Shown here piece by piece: positions 1 through 29,809 of a stretch of DNA of 30,000 bases. Source of the stretch: Actinomycetota bacterium (GTDB lineage: Bacteria; Actinomycetota; UBA4738); NCBI GenBank assembly GCA_013817655.1, contig JACDCJ010000001.1, positions 1 to 30,000 of the forward strand, in the 5' to 3' direction. Each line of letters opens with the position of its first letter. Positions within the stretch are counted from its first letter, which is position 1. Made by a program: the position numbers and the translations under genes. The notes below the pieces were generated by a model, which saw nothing but the letters and a program-made list of their open reading frames with translations, did not search any database and was not told the origin of the DNA.

Positions 1-1080
1 CTGCAGGGCCTTCGCCTCGCGCATGTAGCGCTCGACCGGATACTCCTGCATGTAGCCGTACCCCCCGTGGATCTGGACGGCGTCGGTCGTAACGCGCATG
101 GCGACGTCGGACGCGAAGAGCTTGGCCATCGACGCCGCGATGGAGAAGTCGCCGCCCCCGTCGCGAAGCCGCGCAGCCTCCCGGTACAGGCGACGGGCCG
201 CCTCGATCTGGGTCGCCATGTCGGCCAGCATGAACTGCAGGCCCTGGAAGTCGATGACCGCGCGGCCGAACTGCGACCGCTCCTTCGCAAACTTCACCGC
301 CGCGTCGAACGCCGCCTGGGAGAGGCCCACCGAGCAGGCGGCGATCCCCAGGCGCCCCCCGTCGAGGGCCGCGAGGGCGATGGGGAACCCCTGCCCCTCC
401 TCCCCCACCAGGTTCTCCACGGGCACCTCGCATCCCTCGAAGATCAGCTCGCGCATCGGGGAGGCGTTCCAGCCCATCTTCTCCTCGAGCTTTCCGAACT
501 CGAATCCCGGGCGGTCCGGTTCGACGGCGAAGGCGGAGATGCCGCGAGGACCCTCCTCTCCTGTCCGCGCCAGCACGAGGTAGAGCTCCGCCTCTCCCCC
601 GTGCGTGATGAATCGCTTCGACCCGGTAAGCCGGTAGCCGCCTTCCAGGCGCTCCGCGCGCGTACGCAGGGAGGCGGCGTCCGAGCCGCTCGAGGCCTCC
701 GAGAGCGCGTAGGCGCCCAGCCACTCGCCCGAGAACAGCCGCGGCAGGTACCTCTCCTTCAGGGAGTCGGACCCGTACTGGGAGATGCCGAACGCGGACA
801 GGTGGTGGACGGAGAGCGTCACGGCCAGGGAAAGGAACCCCGTCGCGATCTCCTCGAGGACGGTCACGTATGTCAGATACGACTGCGCTCCGCCGCCGAA
901 GCGCTGCTCGTACGGGATTCCGGCGAGCCCCATCTCCCCGAGCTGGGAGAACAGCTCGCGGGGGAACTCCTTCTTCTCCTCGAATGCGGCGGCGGCGGGA
1001 GCGACCCGTTCGGCGACGAACTCGCGGACCGCGCCGACGATGTCTCGCTGGTCTTCGCTCAGGCCGAAGTCGCGCTCCAC
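1..1080 (-). CDS. Acyl-CoA dehydrogenase (3' end runs off the window start; missing from the ORF track)
   Basis: Manual translation from GTG at 1080: MERDFGLSEDQRDIVGAVREF...GAYALSEASSGSDAASL...QIHGGYGYMQEYPVERYMREAKALQ, with ACAD motifs. TACGCT -10 hexamer lies 7 nt upstream (1088-1093). Confidence 0.92.
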   Translation of the reverse strand, partial: MERDFGLSEDQRDIVGAVREFVAERVAPAAAAFEEKKEFPRELFSQLGEMGLAGIPYEQRFGGGAQSYLTYVTVLEEIATGFLSLAVTLSVHHLSAFGISQYGSDSLKERYLPRLFSGEWLGAYALSEASSGSDAASLRTRAERLEGGYRLTGSKRFITHGGEAELYLVLARTGEEGPRGISAFAVEPDRPGFEFGKLEEKMGWNASPMRELIFEGCEVPVENLVGEEGQGFPIALAALDGGRLGIAACSVGLSQAAFDAAVKFAKERSQFGRAVIDFQGLQFMLADMATQIEAARRLYREAARLRDGGGDFSIAASMAKLFASDVAMRVTTDAVQIHGGYGYMQEYPVERYMREAKALQ

Positions 1081-1158
1081 CGAGGGAAGCGTAGCATCGG
1101 CGCTCAGCGATGCCGCCTCTCGCGGGGCGTCCCACGCCGCCGGTATCCTTTCCTGGTC

Positions 1159-2556
1159 ATGCGCCTCTACAGCTCCCTGTCGCGCCAGATCGAAGAGGTC
1201 AAGCCGTTGGACGGCCAGACCGTGAAGATCTACTCGTGCGGTCCCACCGTGTACCGCTACATCCATATAGGAAACTTCCGCTCCTTCATGCTCGGCGATC
1301 TCATCCGGCGGATCCTTCGGTTCGAGGGTCAGGACTCCCGTCTGGTCATGAACATCACCGACGTCGGCCACATGACCGACGACCTAAGGGACACGGGGCT
1401 CGACAAGATGGAGCTCGCCCAGTCGGACGAGGGCCTCTCCGCGATGCAGATCGCGGAGAAGTACACCGAGGCGTTCCTCAAGGACGGCGACGCGGTCGGC
1501 ATCGGGCGTGCCGACCTGTATCCGCGGGCGACCGAGCACATCCCCGAGATGATCGAGATCACGAAGCGGCTGGTCGAGAAGGGCCACGCGTACGTGGTCG
1601 ACGGAACGGTGTACTTCGAGGTCCGCACCTTCCCGGACTACGGGAAGCTCTCGGGCAACACCCTCGAGGCGCTTCAGGCCGGGCACCGACAGGACGTGGA
1701 GGTCGACCCGAACAAGCGAAGCCGAGAGGACTTCGGGCTCTGGAAAAAGGCAGGCGCGCATCGCGTCCTAAAGTGGCCGAGCCCGTGGGGGGACGGCTTT
1801 CCCGGGTGGCACATCGAGTGCTCGGCGATGTCGATGAAGCACCTGGGCGAGCGCTTCGACGTCCACACCGGCGGCAACGACAACAAGTTCCCCCACCATG
1901 AGGACGAGATCGCGCAGTCCGAAGCCGCCGTTGGCCATTCGGTCGTCTCGGTGTGGGTGCACGGCGGTTTCCTACGCCTCTCCGGACAGAAGATCGCGAA
2001 GTCGGCGAAGAACGTCGTGCTGGTGCCGGAGATCGTGGAGCGGGGACTGGATCCGCTGGCGTTCCGGTTGGTGTGCTTCGGCACCCGTTATCGCAGCGAG
2101 ATGGATTTCAGCTGGGAGGCCTTCGAGGCGGCGAACACCCGGCTCACCGGCCTGCGGCAGCGGATGGCCGACTGGTCCGAGTCGCCGGCCGTGGCGACGC
2201 GCGGTGAAATGGCCGAAGACCTCGACCGCCGCTTCAGGGACGCGGTCGCGGACGACATGGACATGCCGGCCGCACTCGTGGTGCTCAACGAGGCGGTCTC
2301 CTCCCCCGCGGTTGGCCCGGCTGAGAAGTACCGGCTCCTCTCCTCGTGGGACGGCGTCCTGGGTCTGGACCTCGAGCGGCTGGCCCGCGAACGATACGAG
2401 GCGCCGCCCGAGGTCCTCGAGCTGATCCGCCGGCGAGACGAGGCCCGGGCCGCCAGGGACTTCGGAACGGCCGATCGGATCCGAGATCAGCTCGGCGCGA
2501 TGGGCCTCGAGGTCATGGACACGCCGGCGGGAACGAGGGTCCGCCCCCGCCTCTAG
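1159..2556 (+). CDS. cysS: Cysteine--tRNA ligase
   Basis: CGPTVY..HIGN, GWHIECSAM, HTGGNDNKFPHHEDE, KIAKS (KMSKS-like) and a C-terminal anticodon-binding helix. Start reassigned to ATG 1159 (MRLYSSLSRQIEE). Confidence 0.95.
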   Translation: MRLYSSLSRQIEEVKPLDGQTVKIYSCGPTVYRYIHIGNFRSFMLGDLIRRILRFEGQDSRLVMNITDVGHMTDDLRDTGLDKMELAQSDEGLSAMQIAEKYTEAFLKDGDAVGIGRADLYPRATEHIPEMIEITKRLVEKGHAYVVDGTVYFEVRTFPDYGKLSGNTLEALQAGHRQDVEVDPNKRSREDFGLWKKAGAHRVLKWPSPWGDGFPGWHIECSAMSMKHLGERFDVHTGGNDNKFPHHEDEIAQSEAAVGHSVVSVWVHGGFLRLSGQKIAKSAKNVVLVPEIVERGLDPLAFRLVCFGTRYRSEMDFSWEAFEAANTRLTGLRQRMADWSESPAVATRGEMAEDLDRRFRDAVADDMDMPAALVVLNEAVSSPAVGPAEKYRLLSSWDGVLGLDLERLARERYEAPPEVLELIRRRDEARAARDFGTADRIRDQLGAMGLEVMDTPAGTRVRPRL

Positions 2557-23474: not shown

Positions 23475-24629
23475 TCAGCCGGTTGTGGGAAGGGGGCGGG
23501 TCCCAAGCGTGACCGAGACCGCGAAACGACCGCGGGCGTCGTTCACCAACTCGATCTCGACCTCGTCGTCGGGCTCTCGGGCGAGGATGAGCTCGCCAAG
23601 TTGCTCGGAGCCCTGGATCGACTCACCCTCAAAGGCCACGATCACGTCCCCCGGTTCGATGCCCGCGCCCTGCGCCGGCCCGCCCGGCGCCACATCGATC
23701 ACATAGGCACCGCGATCGACGGGCAGTCCGAACTGGGCGGCGACTCCGGCGTCGACGGTCGTGGTGGTCACGCCCAGGTAGGCGGCCGGCGCCTCCGGAT
23801 CAGCGATGGCACGCTCGATGAAAGGCCTTGCGGCGTTGATGTCGATGGCGAAGCCGATGTTCTCGGCCTCCCCAGCCCCGGCCGTGTTGATACCGACCAC
23901 GTTGCCGGCGAGGTCGACCAGTGGGCCACCGGAGTTTCCGGGATTGATTGGCGCATCCGTCTGCAGGACGTCCTCGAGCGTTCGGACGATCCCCTGTCCG
24001 TCCTGCCCGCCGCCCGGGTCCTGGATCTGAACGGTGCGCGCCAGGGAGCTGATGATCCCGGACGTGACGGAGGGACCACCCGGCAGGGCGAGGGCATACC
24101 CGAGGGCGACCACGCGCTCGCCGAGGGCGACCGAATCGGAGTCCCCGAGCGGCACCGTGGGGAGGTCCTGCTCGTCCACCTTCAGGACGGCCAGGTCGTG
24201 GTCGGAATCGCCGCCGATCACACGCGCCTCGAAGTTCCTGCTGTCCGGCGGCGGGAGGGTGACCATGATGCTGGTGGCTCCCTCGACGACATGGAAGTTG
24301 GTCACGATGATTCCGTCGGACCGGATGATGAATCCGGTCCCCACCCCCTCACCCCCATCGCCGCCGAAGATGGCGTCCCGGCTCTGGGTACGGGTGGTCA
24401 CGTTCACCACGGACGGGGCGACGCGATCCACCACGGTCACCACGGGGTCCTGCGACGGATCGTAAGGGTTGATCGACGGAAGGAGGGGAGTGCTCCTCGG
24501 CTCGGCCACGCGGGCCACCCGGGCGGCGGCGCTGCAGCCGGAGAGGATCAGCGCGGCGACGATGGAGGTCGCAACCAGCCTTGCCGAGCGCCCGGAGGCT
24601 CCCACGGTGCTCGTTCCATCCACCTTCAT
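23475..24629 (-). CDS. htrA: HtrA/DegP-like trypsin protease with PDZ domain, predicted lipoprotein
   Basis: VTNFHVV, DHDLAVLK, INPGNSGGPL triad plus PDZ domain. LSGC lipobox. TATGAT lies 7 nt before ATG 24629. Confidence 0.9.
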   Translation of the reverse strand: MKVDGTSTVGASGRSARLVATSIVAALILSGCSAAARVARVAEPRSTPLLPSINPYDPSQDPVVTVVDRVAPSVVNVTTRTQSRDAIFGGDGGEGVGTGFIIRSDGIIVTNFHVVEGATSIMVTLPPPDSRNFEARVIGGDSDHDLAVLKVDEQDLPTVPLGDSDSVALGERVVALGYALALPGGPSVTSGIISSLARTVQIQDPGGGQDGQGIVRTLEDVLQTDAPINPGNSGGPLVDLAGNVVGINTAGAGEAENIGFAIDINAARPFIERAIADPEAPAAYLGVTTTTVDAGVAAQFGLPVDRGAYVIDVAPGGPAQGAGIEPGDVIVAFEGESIQGSEQLGELILAREPDDEVEIELVNDARGRFAVSVTLGTRPLPTTG

Positions 24630-24637
24630 AGCATCGA

Positions 24638-24657
24638 TCATACGAAGGCACGTATGA
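24638..24657 (-). promoter_or_regulatory. Inverted repeat TCATACG-N6-CGTATGA overlapping the htrA -10
   Basis: Perfect 7-bp arms, seen directly. Operator role is inferred. Confidence 0.5.
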
Positions 24658-24764
24658 AACGCGGCTGAGGAAGTTCGGCGGGGTGTTGCGCTCCTGTGAC
24701 GACGGACGCTCGGTGGAACCGGTGACCGTTTCGTGGTGGATGCAGCCGCTCGGCGATGCCCGCC

Positions 24765-24983
24765 TCAGCGGCGGATGACGGCGGCCCACAGCTGCAGGGC
24801 GAACCCGACGAAAAGCAGGCTCGAGCCGATCAGGTACGCGACCTTCTCGCGTCGGTGAGCGGCATCGCTCGGCCCCGAATAGTCGCGATTGCCCCTGACG
24901 ATCGACAACGCCCCGAGGGCGAAGGCGGCGGCCCCGGCAAGGGCCAGCCCGAGGCCGATCAGCGTTAGTTGGTGGGCGTTCAC
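24765..24983 (-). CDS. Small two-helix membrane protein (72 aa)
   Basis: MNAHQLTLIGLGLALAGAAAFALGALSI...YLIGSSLLFVGFALQLWAAVIRR. TAGTGT -10 lies 7 nt before the GTG. Confidence 0.7.
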   Translation of the reverse strand: MNAHQLTLIGLGLALAGAAAFALGALSIVRGNRDYSGPSDAAHRREKVAYLIGSSLLFVGFALQLWAAVIRR

Positions 24984-25005
24984 GCCGCGAACACTACACG
25001 GTCCG

Positions 25006-25027
25006 TGCGGTCGCACGCGAAACCGCA
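25006..25027 (-). terminator. GC hairpin after the MauA-like gene (possible terminator)
   Basis: UGCGG(UU)UCGC-GU-GCGA-CCGCA stem. No U-tract. Confidence 0.3.
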
Positions 25028-25062
25028 AGCCAACCGGTGCATGTCCGTCTGATGATCCTCCG

Positions 25063-25467
25063 TCAAACGCCTTCCGCCGCGAGCTCCGTGAGCGTCGGCG
25101 CACAACTGCGGGTGGTTCGGCAGCCACACACGCAGAGCGTGCCGCTCGTGTCACTGACGCAGTCCCTGCACAGGAAGAGCCGGTCACCCTCCAGGCAGCA
25201 GCCCCACGTGTACCCGTTGTACGACCACCCGTCGGGACACAGCTGCCTCGCCCCCCCGTCGCAGTTGCAGGTGACGCCGATGGATCGGCAGGCCGTGCCG
25301 ATGCAGCACTTTGGGTCGGCCGAGGCCGTTTGCGCAAGTACCACCTGCCCAACGCCCAGGCCCGCGAGAACCGCCGACATCTTGGCAAGGAAGCCCCTGC
25401 GTGAGGTCTTTCGATACACGATGCCGGTGCCCTTCTCCACGAGGTCCCGGGTCTGCCGATCGTCCAT
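25063..25467 (-). CDS. Tat-exported, 14-Cys methylamine dehydrogenase light-chain (MauA)-like small protein
   Basis: SRRGFL Tat motif, ASA cleavage site, then C-x5-C-x6-C-x-C-x-GG-x4-CP-x-G-x7-W and RDC, matching the MauA N-terminal half as I recall it. GGAGAG RBS. Confidence 0.72.
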   Translation of the reverse strand: MDDRQTRDLVEKGTGIVYRKTSRRGFLAKMSAVLAGLGVGQVVLAQTASADPKCCIGTACRSIGVTCNCDGGARQLCPDGWSYNGYTWGCCLEGDRLFLCRDCVSDTSGTLCVCGCRTTRSCAPTLTELAAEGV

Positions 25468-25524
25468 GTCCTCTCCATTCTCTCCGCGTTCCGATCAACG
25501 AATGAGCGGCGCTCAGGCCGCGGC

Positions 25525-26283
25525 TCAGGCTCCCACCGCGGCTGCGACGGCGGCACCAAGCACCGCGAAGGTGAGCGTGGTCGAGAGCGCACGCCAAAGC
25601 GGGCCCCGATCCAGACCCCAGAGGACGGGGCCCAGAGAGCCCTCTGTGCCCGCGTTAGCCAGAATCACGGCGGACAGCCCGCGTGCCGCGCCGTACGTCC
25701 CAAGGACCGCAGCGCCGGTGGCCGCGTCGCCGAGGAGTGCGGCCCCGGCCAGGACCACCACGTACCCCGCGTTCGCCACGCGAGTGCCCACCCCCGGCCC
25801 GAGAAGCGCGCCGTAAAGGGCGGCAGTGACCACCGGAGGGTACCGGTAACGCCATGCAGCGGGTACCTGGCGCCCCGATCGGGGCAGGGGAAGGCGGACG
25901 AGCCCGAGCTCCATCGCGCCGTAGCAGGTGGTGACCAGGGCGAGCAAGAGAAGCCGATCCGGCCCGGCCAGCACCAGCAATCCCCCGACGGATCCCACCG
26001 CGAGGCCGGTGAGAGCCCCCGCGAGCGTGGCCGCGACGGCGTGCGCGATGCCCGCGCCCGCTCTGGTCGCCGCGGAACCCCGGACCAGGGTCCCCACCAT
26101 GGACGCCCCTCAGGGCGACGCCAGACTGATGAGGCCCTGGGCGGCGGCGCTCACCGCAACGGCCACCGGCACGAGGGACACCGTTCCAGCGCCGACGGCC
26201 AGAGCGCCCGCAAAGGCGCCCGCCCCGGCGAGCAGCATCATCGCGGGGACGATCCGCCGGCGCGCGACAACCGTGGCGCTCAT
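25525..26283 (-). CDS. MauF/CcdA-like membrane protein with predicted selenocysteine (in-frame TGA at codon 58, 26110-26112)
   Basis: ATG 26283 overlaps the mauD stop (ATGA) and is in frame with the track ORF 25525-26100. Reads ...GLISLASP-TGA-GASMVGTL..., against the MauF STWSPCGYSS motif. C-terminal YGALLGPGVGT. Confidence 0.78.
26072..26097 (-). promoter_or_regulatory. Candidate bacterial SECIS element
   Basis: Stem GGGACCC/GGGUUCC (26094-26088 paired with 26080-26074) closes the loop UGGUCCG, which begins 22 nt after the UGA and contains GGUC. Confidence 0.65.
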
Positions 26284-26876
26284 GACGCCGAGCTCACGGA
26301 GTCGCCCTCCACCCAGACCGCACCCTCTCCCGTTCGAACCCGCCCCTGGATGAGGGAGGAGACCATCTCCCGGTTGTTAACCACTCCACGGCTCCGGACG
26401 ACCCCTGCGGTGTCGACCAGGATGGCCCGCGGCGTGGTGACGATGCCCACCGCTCGCATCGCGGCCCCATCGTCTTGCCACGCCTGGCCGGCGAACCGGG
26501 ACCGGTCGAGCATCGCTCGGGCCTCCTCCGCCGGCCCGGACAAGACCGGAACGATGGCGTGGTCGGGCCAATCCTTCACGACCCCGTCGAGCTCCGAGAG
26601 GAGGTCGGCACACAACGTGCACCGGGTGGACATGAATAGCACTACGGCCGGGCGGCTCCCGAGGTCGGGCGACGAGGGCCGGCCCGATCTGGCATCGGCC
26701 AGGCGCAAGGCCGGGAGGGTCGCCCCCGGCTCCATTCCCTCGAGCGACTCCAGCGCAGGGGCTGCCGGCAGGCGGCGACTGAGCAGACCCACCTCTCGAG
26801 CCAGGGCGAGGATCGCGAGCGCCTCGACGATCGCGAGGATCGCCAGCGCGGCGACGGCGATCCACAGGGCGGTCAC
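26280..26876 (-). CDS. MauD-like membrane-anchored thioredoxin-fold protein
   Basis: N-terminal TM helix, REVGLLSRR, CTLC (CxxC), TPRAILVD, RSRGVVNNREMVSSL. GTG 26876 overlaps the mauE stop (GTGA). Confidence 0.82.
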   Translation of the reverse strand: MTALWIAVAALAILAIVEALAILALAREVGLLSRRLPAAPALESLEGMEPGATLPALRLADARSGRPSSPDLGSRPAVVLFMSTRCTLCADLLSELDGVVKDWPDHAIVPVLSGPAEEARAMLDRSRFAGQAWQDDGAAMRAVGIVTTPRAILVDTAGVVRSRGVVNNREMVSSLIQGRVRTGEGAVWVEGDSVSSAS

Positions 26877-27457
26877 GCGTGCTCCTCGTGAGCGCGGATC
26901 CCGGTCTCGACAGTCGTCAAGAGACGGAGCGCGGCCACGGCAAGGGCGCCCGTGGCGAGGGCGGCAGCGGAGACGATGGCCACCGCGGTCGCCTCGGAAC
27001 CGGAAATCGAAAGAGGTAACGTCGAGCCCCGATCGGTGCCCAGGTGGAAGACGAGCGCCACTGCCGCTAGGCCGAGCAGCCCGATGGTTCGGGCCACGGC
27101 CGCGCCATCGATACGCTCGCCGCGGGAGGCGCCGAAGCACGCACAGGAGGCATCCAGACGGAGGTGTAGGGCCCGGATCAGGACGAGTGCGAACCCAAGG
27201 AGCAGCAACACTGCGGTCGCAAGCCCCACCGTGAGGAAGCGCGACAGCATGGCCGCGGCGGAAGCGATCTCGAGCACCGGCAGAGCCCGTGCCCCCGCCG
27301 GAACCGCCCACCTGAGCCGGACCGGAACTAGGTTACGGGCGGTTTCGACGAAGCCGGCCATATCCCTGAGCTTCGCGATTCCCGCAAGGCCGAGCACCAC
27401 GGCGAGGATCAGGCGAGCGGCCTGCAGAAGCAGCCGATCGACCTCCGACACTTCCAT
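26873..27457 (-). CDS. MauE/DoxX family redox-associated membrane protein
   Basis: LGLAGIAKL, LPVLEI, SCACFG (CxCFG motif), four hydrophobic helices, GGAGG RBS. Confidence 0.87.
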   Translation of the reverse strand: MEVSEVDRLLLQAARLILAVVLGLAGIAKLRDMAGFVETARNLVPVRLRWAVPAGARALPVLEIASAAAMLSRFLTVGLATAVLLLLGFALVLIRALHLRLDASCACFGASRGERIDGAAVARTIGLLGLAAVALVFHLGTDRGSTLPLSISGSEATAVAIVSAAALATGALAVAALRLLTTVETGIRAHEEHA

Positions 27458-27482
27458 CCCAACCTCCCACGAGGCGCCCCCG

Positions 27483-27517
27483 CTCCGCGCGCGGAGAGGC
27501 GGACGGAACTATATCCT
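27483..27517. promoter_or_regulatory. Divergent promoter region (TATAGT for the mau-like operon, TATCCT for the LLM gene) with a 14-bp palindrome
   Basis: Overlapping hexamers at 27508-27513 (-) and 27512-27517 (+). CTCCGCGCGCGGAG at 27483-27496. Confidence 0.45.
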
Positions 27518-27543
27518 GGCCCCTTCCGTTCTGGAGGTCGCTC

Positions 27544-28377
27544 GTGCGATTCGGCCTGGACGTCGCGCAACACCAGCAGGCGTGGGGAGGGATACTCGAG
27601 CGCGCTCGTTTCGCGGAGGATGCCGGGTTCGACGGCTGCTGGGTCTTCGACCACTTCAAGGCCCTCTATGGCGACCCCGTGGGTCCGTGTCTGGAGGGAT
27701 GGTCACTGCTCGCCGGGCTCGCCGCGGGAACATCGAGGATCCGCCTGGGCGCCCTGGTGACCGGGGCGACCTACCGGCATCCCTCCATCCTCGCGGCCCA
27801 GGCGGTGACCGTCGATCACATCTCGGGTGGGCGGCTCGAGCTCGGCATCGGCGCCGCCTGGTTCGAACGCGAACACGTCGAGCTCGGCATCGACTTCCCC
27901 GGGGTCCGCGAGCGCGGTGAGCGGCTCGACGAAGCGGTCCAGGTCATCCGGTCTCTGATGACCGGTGAGCCCGCGTCGTTTCAGGGGAGGCACTACCAAC
28001 TCCGCAACGCCGTATACCGGCCCCAACCAGTCCAGCAGCCGACGCCTCCGATCTGGATCGGCGCGGGAGGCGAGCGGATGATGCTTCCCATCGTCGCTCG
28101 CCGGGCGGATGTGTGGCACGGGTTCGGGCCCGCAGCGGAGATGCGGCGCAAGTCGCTGATAATCGACCGCCACGCCGAAGCGGCCGGTCGAGATCCCTCG
28201 GAGATCGGGCGCTCGTCGTCCCTGTCCATATCGGAGCCGTGGCACGCCGTCCATCGCAGGGCCGAGGACCTCGCCGGCTCGGGCTTCAACTACCTGATCG
28301 TGTCCTGGCCGTCGGAAGGCCGGGCGCGACTCGAGGAGTTCATCTCCGACGTCATGCCCGACCTCGGTGGCCTGTAG
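27544..28377 (+). CDS. LLM-class (probably F420-dependent) oxidoreductase
   Basis: WVFDHF, LGALVTGATYRHPS, TVDHISGGRLELGIGAAW, PPIWIGAGGE. GGAGG RBS. Confidence 0.9.
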   Translation: MRFGLDVAQHQQAWGGILERARFAEDAGFDGCWVFDHFKALYGDPVGPCLEGWSLLAGLAAGTSRIRLGALVTGATYRHPSILAAQAVTVDHISGGRLELGIGAAWFEREHVELGIDFPGVRERGERLDEAVQVIRSLMTGEPASFQGRHYQLRNAVYRPQPVQQPTPPIWIGAGGERMMLPIVARRADVWHGFGPAAEMRRKSLIIDRHAEAAGRDPSEIGRSSSLSISEPWHAVHRRAEDLAGSGFNYLIVSWPSEGRARLEEFISDVMPDLGGL

Positions 28378-29060
28378 GCCGTAACGAAGAACCCCCGGAC
28401 GCGCCGCTCCCCCTCCACATAAGCGATCTCCCGGTGAGCGGGTGGCTCGCCAGGGTCGAAGGCCAATCGAATCGAGTCGTCGTCGGGGTGGTTCGGGTCG
28501 TATACCAGGACATGAACCCACCCGCTGGCCTCGTCGAGGTCGTACCCGTAGGCGAGCGCCTGGTGGTTCCGCGCCATCGTCCATGGGCTGATCGAACGAA
28601 CGCGGACCAGCCCGAGGGGACAGAGGCGGCCGGCGTCGACCTCATTCCGCACCCGCGGCCACTCCCTCCGGATCGTTCTCGAGGTCGCGCCACGGACAAC
28701 CCAGGCGTCCCCATCCGGGAGCATCGACCACGCGAAGTAGCGCAGGACGCCGAAAGGGAGACCCCAGCTCGAGAACAGCCGGCGGACCAGGTAGGGGAAC
28801 AGTGGCGTGCCCCGGGTTGGGGCCGTGGCGACCGCCGGAGGCAGACGTCCCGCTTCGAAGATGTCTCGGGCCGCGAAGACCATGCCGCCGCACAGGCCCC
28901 TAGAGGCGTTCCCGACCGGCAGGCGCAGCCCGGCCAACCTGAGCTCGGCGACCGGTGCCTTGGAGAAACGGTTCGGAAAATGGAACCCCGAACGGCTGGG
29001 GAGGAAGCCCGGCACCCGCGCGCTGACCACCTCCGGAAGTATCTCGCGTGGAGATTCCAT
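28290..29060 (-). CDS. Hypothetical protein with papain-like Cys-His-Asp motifs (start uncertain)
   Basis: GLCGGM, NHQALAY and VYDPNHP occur in catalytic-triad order. Overlaps the 3' end of the LLM gene by 88 nt. Confidence 0.62.
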   Translation of the reverse strand: MESPREILPEVVSARVPGFLPSRSGFHFPNRFSKAPVAELRLAGLRLPVGNASRGLCGGMVFAARDIFEAGRLPPAVATAPTRGTPLFPYLVRRLFSSWGLPFGVLRYFAWSMLPDGDAWVVRGATSRTIRREWPRVRNEVDAGRLCPLGLVRVRSISPWTMARNHQALAYGYDLDEASGWVHVLVYDPNHPDDDSIRLAFDPGEPPAHREIAYVEGERRVRGFFVTAYRPPRSGMTSEMNSSSRARPSDGQDTIR

Positions 29061-29122
29061 GAGAAGGATGGGGCCTGCGGCGATCCTCGGACGGTTCTGT
29101 CGCTCCGATCCCATAATGTCCC

Positions 29123-29809
29123 ATGGAATTCGAGATGCGGACTGGCGGCTCAGCCCGCGGGAAGTGCCGATGGATGGCTGCTGCGGGCATGGCCGTCGCC
29201 GTCGTTCTCGCCTCATGCGGAGGGACCAGCGGATACACCTTCGTGCGCAGCTCCGAGACCGACGCGTTCTTCAAGGTGCCGAGCGATTGGGAGCGCTTCA
29301 ACAAGAAGGAGATCCTCGTGGCGGTGGATCTGAGCGATTCGCCGGGGGCGAACGAGGGCTTCAAGTTCCTGGAGGCCTACGACGCCGCGCCGGATCCCTC
29401 GATCGACCACGTTATTGGAGCGGAGCTACCGAATTTCCCGGTCGTTCGCGCAGAGGTCCGCCAGCTCACCCCGGTGACACGCGACCGGATGTCGCTCCAG
29501 TCCATCCGCAACGCGCTGTTCCCGATCGACGAGCTCTTCCAGAACGACCAGGTAGACGTCCTTGCCGAGGAGGACGTGGTGCTCGATGGGGGGGTCCATG
29601 GGCTGCGGCTGGACTACAACCTCTCCCTCGCGGGAAACCTCACGGCGGTGGCCGGCAACCAGATCCTCCGGGTGACCCAGATCGGCCTGGTGGACCCCGC
29701 CACGAACCTCTTCTACCTCTTCTGGGTTCAGTGCACGGCGGACTGCTTCCAGCAGCATCAGCGCACGATCGACCAGATCGTGGATTCCTACACCGTGAAG
29801 GAGCAGTGA
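29123..29809 (+). CDS. Hypothetical lipoprotein
   Basis: Basic n-region, hydrophobic h-region, LASC lipobox and a well-formed globular remainder. Confidence 0.75.
   Translation: MEFEMRTGGSARGKCRWMAAAGMAVAVVLASCGGTSGYTFVRSSETDAFFKVPSDWERFNKKEILVAVDLSDSPGANEGFKFLEAYDAAPDPSIDHVIGAELPNFPVVRAEVRQLTPVTRDRMSLQSIRNALFPIDELFQNDQVDVLAEEDVVLDGGVHGLRLDYNLSLAGNLTAVAGNQILRVTQIGLVDPATNLFYLFWVQCTADCFQQHQRTIDQIVDSYTVKEQ

Follow-up and report, generated by a model that had tools for sequence, protein, structure and literature searches.

The canonical mau-type gene cluster, used as reference throughout this study, is mauRFBEDACJGMN on plasmid 1 of Paracoccus denitrificans PD1222 (NC_008688; locus L108), and papers citing the original work state that MauE and MauD are required in this species specifically for the small subunit (van der Palen 1997, via citing papers). 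For MauE, it was reported that the protein substitutes for DsbB in Escherichia coli via its CXC site, and it was argued to be a generalist disulfide generator (bioRxiv 10.64898/2026.03.05.709764). Here, we describe a mau-type operon found in a stretch of 30,000 nucleotides (nt) of an actinobacterial genome (contig JACDCJ010000001.1 of assembly GCA_013817655.1, positions 1 to 30,000; hereafter called the window). The genome is metagenome-assembled, comprises 1.79 Mb and is 74% complete. Five genes lie on the minus strand between positions 24765 and 27457, encoding a MauE-like protein, a MauD-like protein, a MauF homologue with a predicted selenocysteine (Sec, U), a shortened, Cys-rich MauA relative termed mini-MauA, and a membrane protein of 72 amino acids (aa). 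We consider it probable that this is an orphan mau-type operon, in which MauE, MauD and MauF would form a thiol-redox relay maturing the co-encoded disulfide-rich client, and that it does not encode an amine dehydrogenase.

The MauE-like protein matched Pfam family PF07291 well above its threshold, scoring 74.3 bits where 27 are required (75.4 bits in the profile search of the whole genome), and is the sole match to this family in the genome. Its motif C105-A-C107-F108-G109 fits the CXC-F-G active site described for MauE (bioRxiv 10.64898/2026.03.05.709764). The MauD-like protein, encoded directly 3′ of mauE, possesses an N-terminal membrane anchor and a thioredoxin fold that bears a CxxC motif. 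It aligned with TIGR02661 over positions 6-181 of 189 (46.5 bits, below the equivalog cut-off of 188.6) and with Paracoccus MauD at 25% identity across 177 aa (E 4e-16), next to weak Pfam matches to Thioredoxin_2 and AhpC-TSA. A tblastn search with MauD and MauE of the window against plasmids yielded no match; MauD of locus L074, used as query, reached the Paracoccus mau cluster. Complex prediction of MauE and MauD of the window gave a score of 0.01, which speaks neither for nor against an interaction.

The stop codon of mauE overlaps the start codon of mauD (GTGA, 26873-26876) and the stop codon of mauD overlaps the ATG of mauF (ATGA, 26280-26283), while the mini-MauA gene follows after a gap of 57 nt and is preceded by a purine-rich GGAGAG..GGAGAGG tract at 25470-25485. 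An earlier note, made from the sequence of the window, had described three translationally coupled thiol-redox genes and a separate gene for a Cys-rich protein exported by twin-arginine translocation (Tat), with its own ribosome-binding site; coordinates, motifs and overlaps were all confirmed, and the assignments to MauE, MauD, MauF and MauA made there hold by the evidence given above and below, for MauD with the score under the equivalog cut-off. The four genes named in that note were found as listed, a fifth conserved one, that of the 72-aa protein, had been overlooked. Genes in the corresponding place in L018 and L092 encode proteins that are 62% and 93% identical to it, respectively; it has no Pfam match and no counterpart in L022. 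The order E-D-F(UGA)-A is repeated in the independent soil contigs L018, L022 and L110 at 40-62% protein identity, which argues against a chance arrangement.

To our knowledge, no function has been assigned to MauF in the about 30 years since mau clusters were sequenced. The homologue encoded in the window matched no Pfam or NCBIfam family. Its AlphaFold2 model (predicted local distance difference test score 84.8), compared with the Swiss-Prot folds, returned MauF proteins as all of the five best matches, with template modelling (TM) scores of 0.83-0.85 and 24-28% identity; the next match scored <0.41. An exhaustive structural search with the model produced generic helical matches only (Z <=6.7), and no solved structure fits. 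In the alignment with Paracoccus MauF (29% identity), SPUG takes the place of WSPCG, and S-P-C/U-G-x-S, R74, Q139-V140, G158, T167 and R201 are invariant between the two proteins. The S-P-C/U-G motif is located at the end of the helix preceding the first cytoplasmic loop and holds the single conserved redox residue of the family. Natural MauF::MauE fusions of ~375 aa are found in the same bacterial order (P0013, P0015-P0018 and L074:1564-2694), which argues that MauF and MauE act as one unit. Public records contain just the 191-193-aa piece 3′ of the UGA for the MauF homologue, and every database entry of the fusions has the Met immediately 3′ of the UGA as its first residue, the fusions thus being truncated selenoproteins as well. 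Cys-form MauF genes without tblastn-detectable MauE or MauD within ~5 kb were observed at five loci (L102, L103, L104, L106 and L107), where MauF may work in another context.

The reading of the UGA in the MauF gene as Sec, likewise proposed in the earlier note, is well supported by comparative evidence. The codon aligns with the Cys of Paracoccus MauF and of actinobacterial Cys forms. The in-frame TGA, with coding conserved on both sides, is kept in the close cassettes L018, L022 and L110 as well as in the distant cassettes L054, L055, L056, L058, L060 and L061. A MauF-like match was obtained in 90 of 401 sampled genomes of the phylum, ~73 of which carry the in-frame TGA and ~12 stop-free copies only; all six stop-free copies that were read, out of the 12, have Cys at the site. 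Counted by hand, ~67 of the 73 genomes with the TGA form contain selA vs 3 of the 12 Cys-only genomes, which, the genomes being related, is to be taken as a pattern and not as a statistic. The genome counts for MauF, selA and MauE/VKOR include the unpublished genomes G001, G048, G120, G088, G318 and G336, on which no conclusion depends. L059 (G001), which has the WSPUG motif and an apparent frame problem further on, was left out of the alignments. Among cassette-bearing relatives, five out of five tested contained selA as well as a tRNA-Sec above the gathering score, in G144 only marginally so. The consensus structure of 20 loci comprises two hairpins 3′ of the UGA with compensatory changes at 11 of 13 pairs; in the window, the hairpin stem is GGGACCCUG / CGGGGUUCC with the loop GUC. 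Finally, the organism’s own SelD is a selenoprotein (GAG-U-ACK; G000:C13, L001:1441-1680), which implies that UGA is read as Sec in this organism.

Gene callers treat the TGA as a true stop, which would yield a peptide of 57 aa and a separate membrane protein of 191 aa. This would agree with the public records and with the finding that, besides SelD, the Sec machinery (selA, selB and tRNA-Sec) was not found in the 74%-complete genome. However, the position of the TGA is precisely that of the invariant MauF Cys, the coding sequence to either side of it is conserved in ~70 genomes, forms with Cys are found where there is no selA, the hairpin covaries, and SelD requires Sec decoding in this very organism, so that we give a true stop hardly any credence. 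The split of Sec-MauF in two by gene callers has hidden the family in databases, despite its presence in about one fifth of the sampled Actinomycetota genomes. Literature searches likewise revealed no publication on MauF or MauE as a selenoprotein or on Sec-MauF cassettes. Replacement of the only invariant Cys of MauF by Sec in this lineage would mark the residue as a catalytic redox centre.

Mini-MauA is a remote homologue of the light chain that carries tryptophan tryptophylquinone (TTQ) in amine dehydrogenases. Its family profile matches the methylamine dehydrogenase (MADH) light chain 3c75_L (E 2e-4), in an exhaustive structural search against 48,161 chains the two best scores went to the light chains of aromatic amine dehydrogenase (AADH, Z 5.2) and MADH (Z 4.8; next 3.3), and 29 matches of a language-model search carry PF02975 (Me-amine-dh_L clusters). 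These three lines of evidence agree. Pfam gave no match, NCBIfam only weak ones below threshold and confined to the leader, with 12 bits for TIGR02659 against a threshold of 196.85, and a Foldseek search of the model against the PDB returned nothing (best E 0.5). In the alignment with Paracoccus MauA (28% identity), W88 corresponds to Trp57 and D102 to Asp76. The entire mini-MauA family has lost the Trp108 loop together with the last third of MauA at the C-terminus. We take Trp57 to be the residue becoming the quinone and Trp108 to be the cross-link partner needed for TTQ; with the Trp108 loop gone in the whole family, canonical TTQ cannot form. Of 20 members, 18 contain both W88 and D102, while the other two have lost both residues, which hints at a joint function. 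The number of Cys in the mature part is even in all 20 members (10-16), with 12 conserved positions, as many as in MauA, which argues for an all-disulfide product and not for a metal site. The family is rare: only three word-based matches were obtained among 5.8 billion proteins and 17 clusters among 1.84 billion representatives, and searches with narrow alignments retrieved a single close genome from 185,579 species as well as three metagenome loci.

Neither MauB (PF06433) nor MauG (PF03150) was found by hidden Markov model (HMM) searches of the 74%-complete source genome, a completeness which limits these absences, and none of the control genomes provided a positive control for the PF06433 search. 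A tblastn search of the same genome with all Paracoccus Mau proteins did not find MauB or MauG either and recovered, apart from the weak cupredoxin matches given below, only the MauF of the window. The HMM searches for both proteins were also negative in five relatives of 93-100% completeness, which possess related cassettes, and tblastn searches with the Paracoccus proteins found no MauB, MauG, MauJ, MauM or MauN in 14 related loci of <=20 kb. Weak amicyanin-like (cupredoxin) tblastn matches were noticed on contigs C77, C154, C32 and C225 of G000 (E values between 4e-6 and 2e-4) and probably represent cupredoxin domains of the ordinary kind.

The alternative of a conventional TTQ amine dehydrogenase with split genes, for which mauB, mauG and the amicyanin gene would be located elsewhere, could draw on these cupredoxin matches, on genes possibly missing from the incomplete assembly and on the retention of the Trp57 and Asp76 equivalents in mini-MauA. 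It would nevertheless have to be reconciled with MauB and MauG not being found by HMM or tblastn in the genome itself, by HMM in the five relatives or by tblastn in the 14 related loci, and with the deletion of the Trp108 loop and the C-terminal third in the whole family, and we therefore judge it very improbable. The earlier note had stated that a heavy chain and a TTQ maturase are lacking and that the operon is probably not one for methylamine dehydrogenase; the search for mauB and mauG elsewhere in the 74%-complete genome and for their co-occurrence with the cassette in the five relatives and next to related loci revealed neither and so did not refute this view.

A different kind of product is also conceivable, namely a stand-alone Trp-derived redox mini-protein in which W88, the Trp57 equivalent, would be oxygenated or cross-linked to Cys without MauG. 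Sec-MauF, MauE and MauD would then represent the machinery of a MauG-independent first step. We regard this combined proposal as rather improbable. We know of no explanation for the first step in canonical TTQ biogenesis either; if the proposal were true, MauF would gain a function after 30 years and a new minimal quinoprotein would be defined.

For the orphan operon with a disulfide-rich client, the gene identities, the Sec/Cys pair, the recurring gene order and the failure to find MauB and MauG are shown by the results above, while we infer as follows which way electrons flow, what MauF does and what the product is for. Disulfides would be generated by MauE, a membrane protein that has a CXC site and is presumably linked to quinone, and the membrane-anchored thioredoxin-fold CxxC carrier MauD would pass them on to the client. 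MauF, with its single redox residue (Sec here) at a helix break, would work physically together with MauE and serve as a selenylsulfide relay or, alternatively, as an arm for reduction and proof-reading. The client would be the Tat-targeted mini-MauA, a truncated relative of the TTQ small subunit, with all of its 12-14 Cys paired as disulfides, and the product a small, highly cross-linked extracytoplasmic protein. A relay that folds a co-encoded client is proposed because MauE can replace DsbB, MauF::MauE fusions exist and Cys counts are even.

Several points weigh against this reading, in addition to the limits given above for the MauB and MauG searches. A Tat signal usually indicates folding before export, which is awkward to combine with extracytoplasmic disulfide formation. 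All evidence is computational and none experimental. With regard to Sec, selA, selB and tRNA-Sec went undetected in the genome, as described, and the energy of the window hairpin, calculated on the single sequence, is no better than that of shuffles (z 0.45). MauF is linked only weakly to the CcdA/DsbD family. Lastly, no disulfide generator other than MauE was detected in the genome, which contains one MauE and no detected VKOR, and across the order 28 of 31 genomes were found to contain MauE, mostly as one copy within the cassette, and 4 of 31 VKOR.

From the single MauE and the rarity of VKOR it follows that the trio of MauE, MauD and MauF may be the general disulfide pathway of the lineage. 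In its full form, this alternative holds that the three proteins are a general extracytoplasmic disulfide system, i.e., a counterpart of DsbB/DsbA with a reducing arm, for which mini-MauA is just one neighbouring client, and the description of MauE as a generalist (bioRxiv 10.64898/2026.03.05.709764) adds to the VKOR and MauE counts in its favour. The distribution of the cassette points in the other direction. The MauF(Sec) cassette is common, and a MauD-like gene together with a gene for a Cys-rich protein with a MauA-type leader was found within 1.5 kb of MauF at 24 of 30 surveyed MauF loci, the leader being kept while the mature domains vary. Some genomes contain up to four MauF copies, a MauF-like match is lacking in two 94%-complete genomes of the window’s own family, and Paracoccus MauE and MauD are, according to citing papers, required specifically for the small subunit (van der Palen 1997). 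Taken together, we consider a general system unlikely. Gene neighbourhoods, a survey of which had been suggested in the earlier note, showed both the E-D-F-A order in L018, L022 and L110 and client-bearing cassettes at 24 of 30 MauF loci; of the claim made there that the module is dedicated to a single disulfide-rich exported protein, the client-maturing module is retained, whereas exclusive dedication is not, as no second disulfide generator besides MauE was detected and VKOR is rare in the order.

In the 24 of the 30 best MauF loci just mentioned, the cassette consists of a MauD-like gene, a gene termed ‘bigA’ and MauF(Sec), with MauF often fused to MauE. ‘bigA’ (L074:959-1483; L063-L091) encodes a Tat-exported protein of 175 aa with 10 invariant Cys and the motifs HICGH, GGGWSRCC, DCCS and RINGD. 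Sequence identity among its members from two bacterial families is 58-80%, and the gene is invariably located between MauD and MauF(Sec). Searches of Pfam and the PDB with ‘bigA’ gave no match, those of NCBIfam weak matches to the leader only. Homology of ‘bigA’ to MauA is not claimed, as profile-profile comparison shows only the leader to be common with mini-MauA. A further Tat-leader Cys-rich domain was observed in G338 within a 463-aa fusion protein without Pfam match, encoded between MauD and MauF(Sec) (L055:9855-11246).

Canonical MauA, mini-MauA and ‘bigA’ have the leader in common, the stretch that precedes the RR motif included, while their mature domains differ. [quoted passage not shown] In Streptomyces, mauE/mauD clusters whose precursors have at least 8 Cys were flagged as candidate RiPP clusters in a RiPP-mining study (PMC7794033). 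On the other hand, the leader is a Tat signal of the usual kind, cleaved at an AxA site, the mature part shows homology to an enzyme subunit whose active-site Trp and Asp are kept, or lost together in two members, and the operon lacks a protease, transporter or immunity gene. A peptide of this type hence appears quite unlikely to us.

The coordinates of the operon features are compiled in Table 1. The cassette is flanked by a divergent gene for a luciferase-like oxidoreductase and, downstream, by a gene for an HtrA-type protease followed by Pup-proteasome genes. A promoter and terminator scan of positions 24400-27700 yielded zero sites. Frames of 308 aa (28290-29216, minus strand) and 228 aa (29123-29809, plus strand) without Pfam match are located near the cassette. 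At the other end of the window, an 829-aa frame (67-2556, plus strand) contains a cysteinyl-tRNA synthetase domain that begins only at residue 378, and either has an overcalled start or a long N-terminal extension.

Table 1. Features of the mau-type operon, in positions of the window.
Feature	Position	Strand	Basis or characteristics
MauE-like membrane protein, 194 aa	26873-27457	-	Pfam PF07291; C105-A-C107-F-G
MauD-like membrane-anchored thioredoxin-fold protein, 198 aa, GTG start	26280-26876	-	TIGR02661 and Paracoccus MauD alignment; C86-T-L-C89
MauF homologue, 252 aa, one in-frame UGA	25525-26283	-	Fold match and alignment
UGA codon, predicted U58 (S56-P57-U58-G59)	26110-26112	-	Aligned with Cys of homologues
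Hairpin region resembling a Sec insertion sequence (SECIS-like), ~9 nt 3′ of the UGA	26074-26101	-	Consensus structure, 20 loci
Mini-MauA, 134 aa	25063-25467	-	Profile, structural and language-model matches
Mini-MauA, Tat leader, residues 1-50	25318-25467	-	RR at 23-24, ASA cleavage motif at 48-50
Mini-MauA, mature part, 84 aa, 14 Cys	25066-25317	-	
Predicted two-helix membrane protein, 72 aa	24765-24983	-	Conserved 3′ of mini-MauA in close relatives

The window gives the clearest link yet of orphan mau cassettes to their origin, as its MauA is still recognisable although radically shortened, with the quinone Trp and the catalytic Asp kept. The operon offers a new membrane selenoprotein family and a candidate for a new small redox or structural protein, and would be a minimal system for separating the roles of MauE, MauD and MauF.

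Compared with described systems, MauF resembles CcdA/DsbD in that it is a membrane protein of several helices, one of which is broken at a Pro-Cys-type motif; a match to Pfam DsbD_2 (5.8e-5) was obtained for one MauF relative, and DsbD is among the weak fold matches. In contrast to CcdA/DsbD, which have two membrane-embedded Cys, MauF has one conserved redox residue, the window protein lacks a Pfam match, including to DsbD_TM and DsbD_2, and TM scores are <=0.41. The Streptomyces clusters found with decRiPPter (PMC7794033) are similar in that a small Cys-rich precursor is encoded beside mauE and mauD while the remaining mau genes are absent. The sections of that report consulted mention neither MauF nor selenocysteine nor homology of the precursor to MauA.

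The MauE described as DsbB-like generator (Gonzalez et al., bioRxiv 10.64898/2026.03.05.709764) shares with the MauE of the window the four-helix CXC-F-G architecture, a thioredoxin-fold partner and the lack of a MADH. It is treated there as a stand-alone generalist, for which MauF, selenocysteine and co-encoded clients are not mentioned, whereas the MauE of the window is part of an operon with Sec-MauF and is fused to MauF in relatives. The Paracoccus mau cluster contains, in addition to the genes shared with the window, those for MauB, amicyanin, MauJ, MauG, MauM and MauN, all missing from the window operon. The gene order is E-D-F-A in the window vs F-B-E-D-A in Paracoccus, MauF has Sec instead of Cys, and the mature MauA of ~131 aa is opposed to a mini-MauA of 84 aa without Trp108 and the C-terminal third. 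Homologues of MauF, MauE, MauD and MauA are nevertheless all present in the window, with E directly before D, with the same long Tat leader and the 12 conserved Cys of MauA, and with the SPCG motif of MauF kept with U in place of C.

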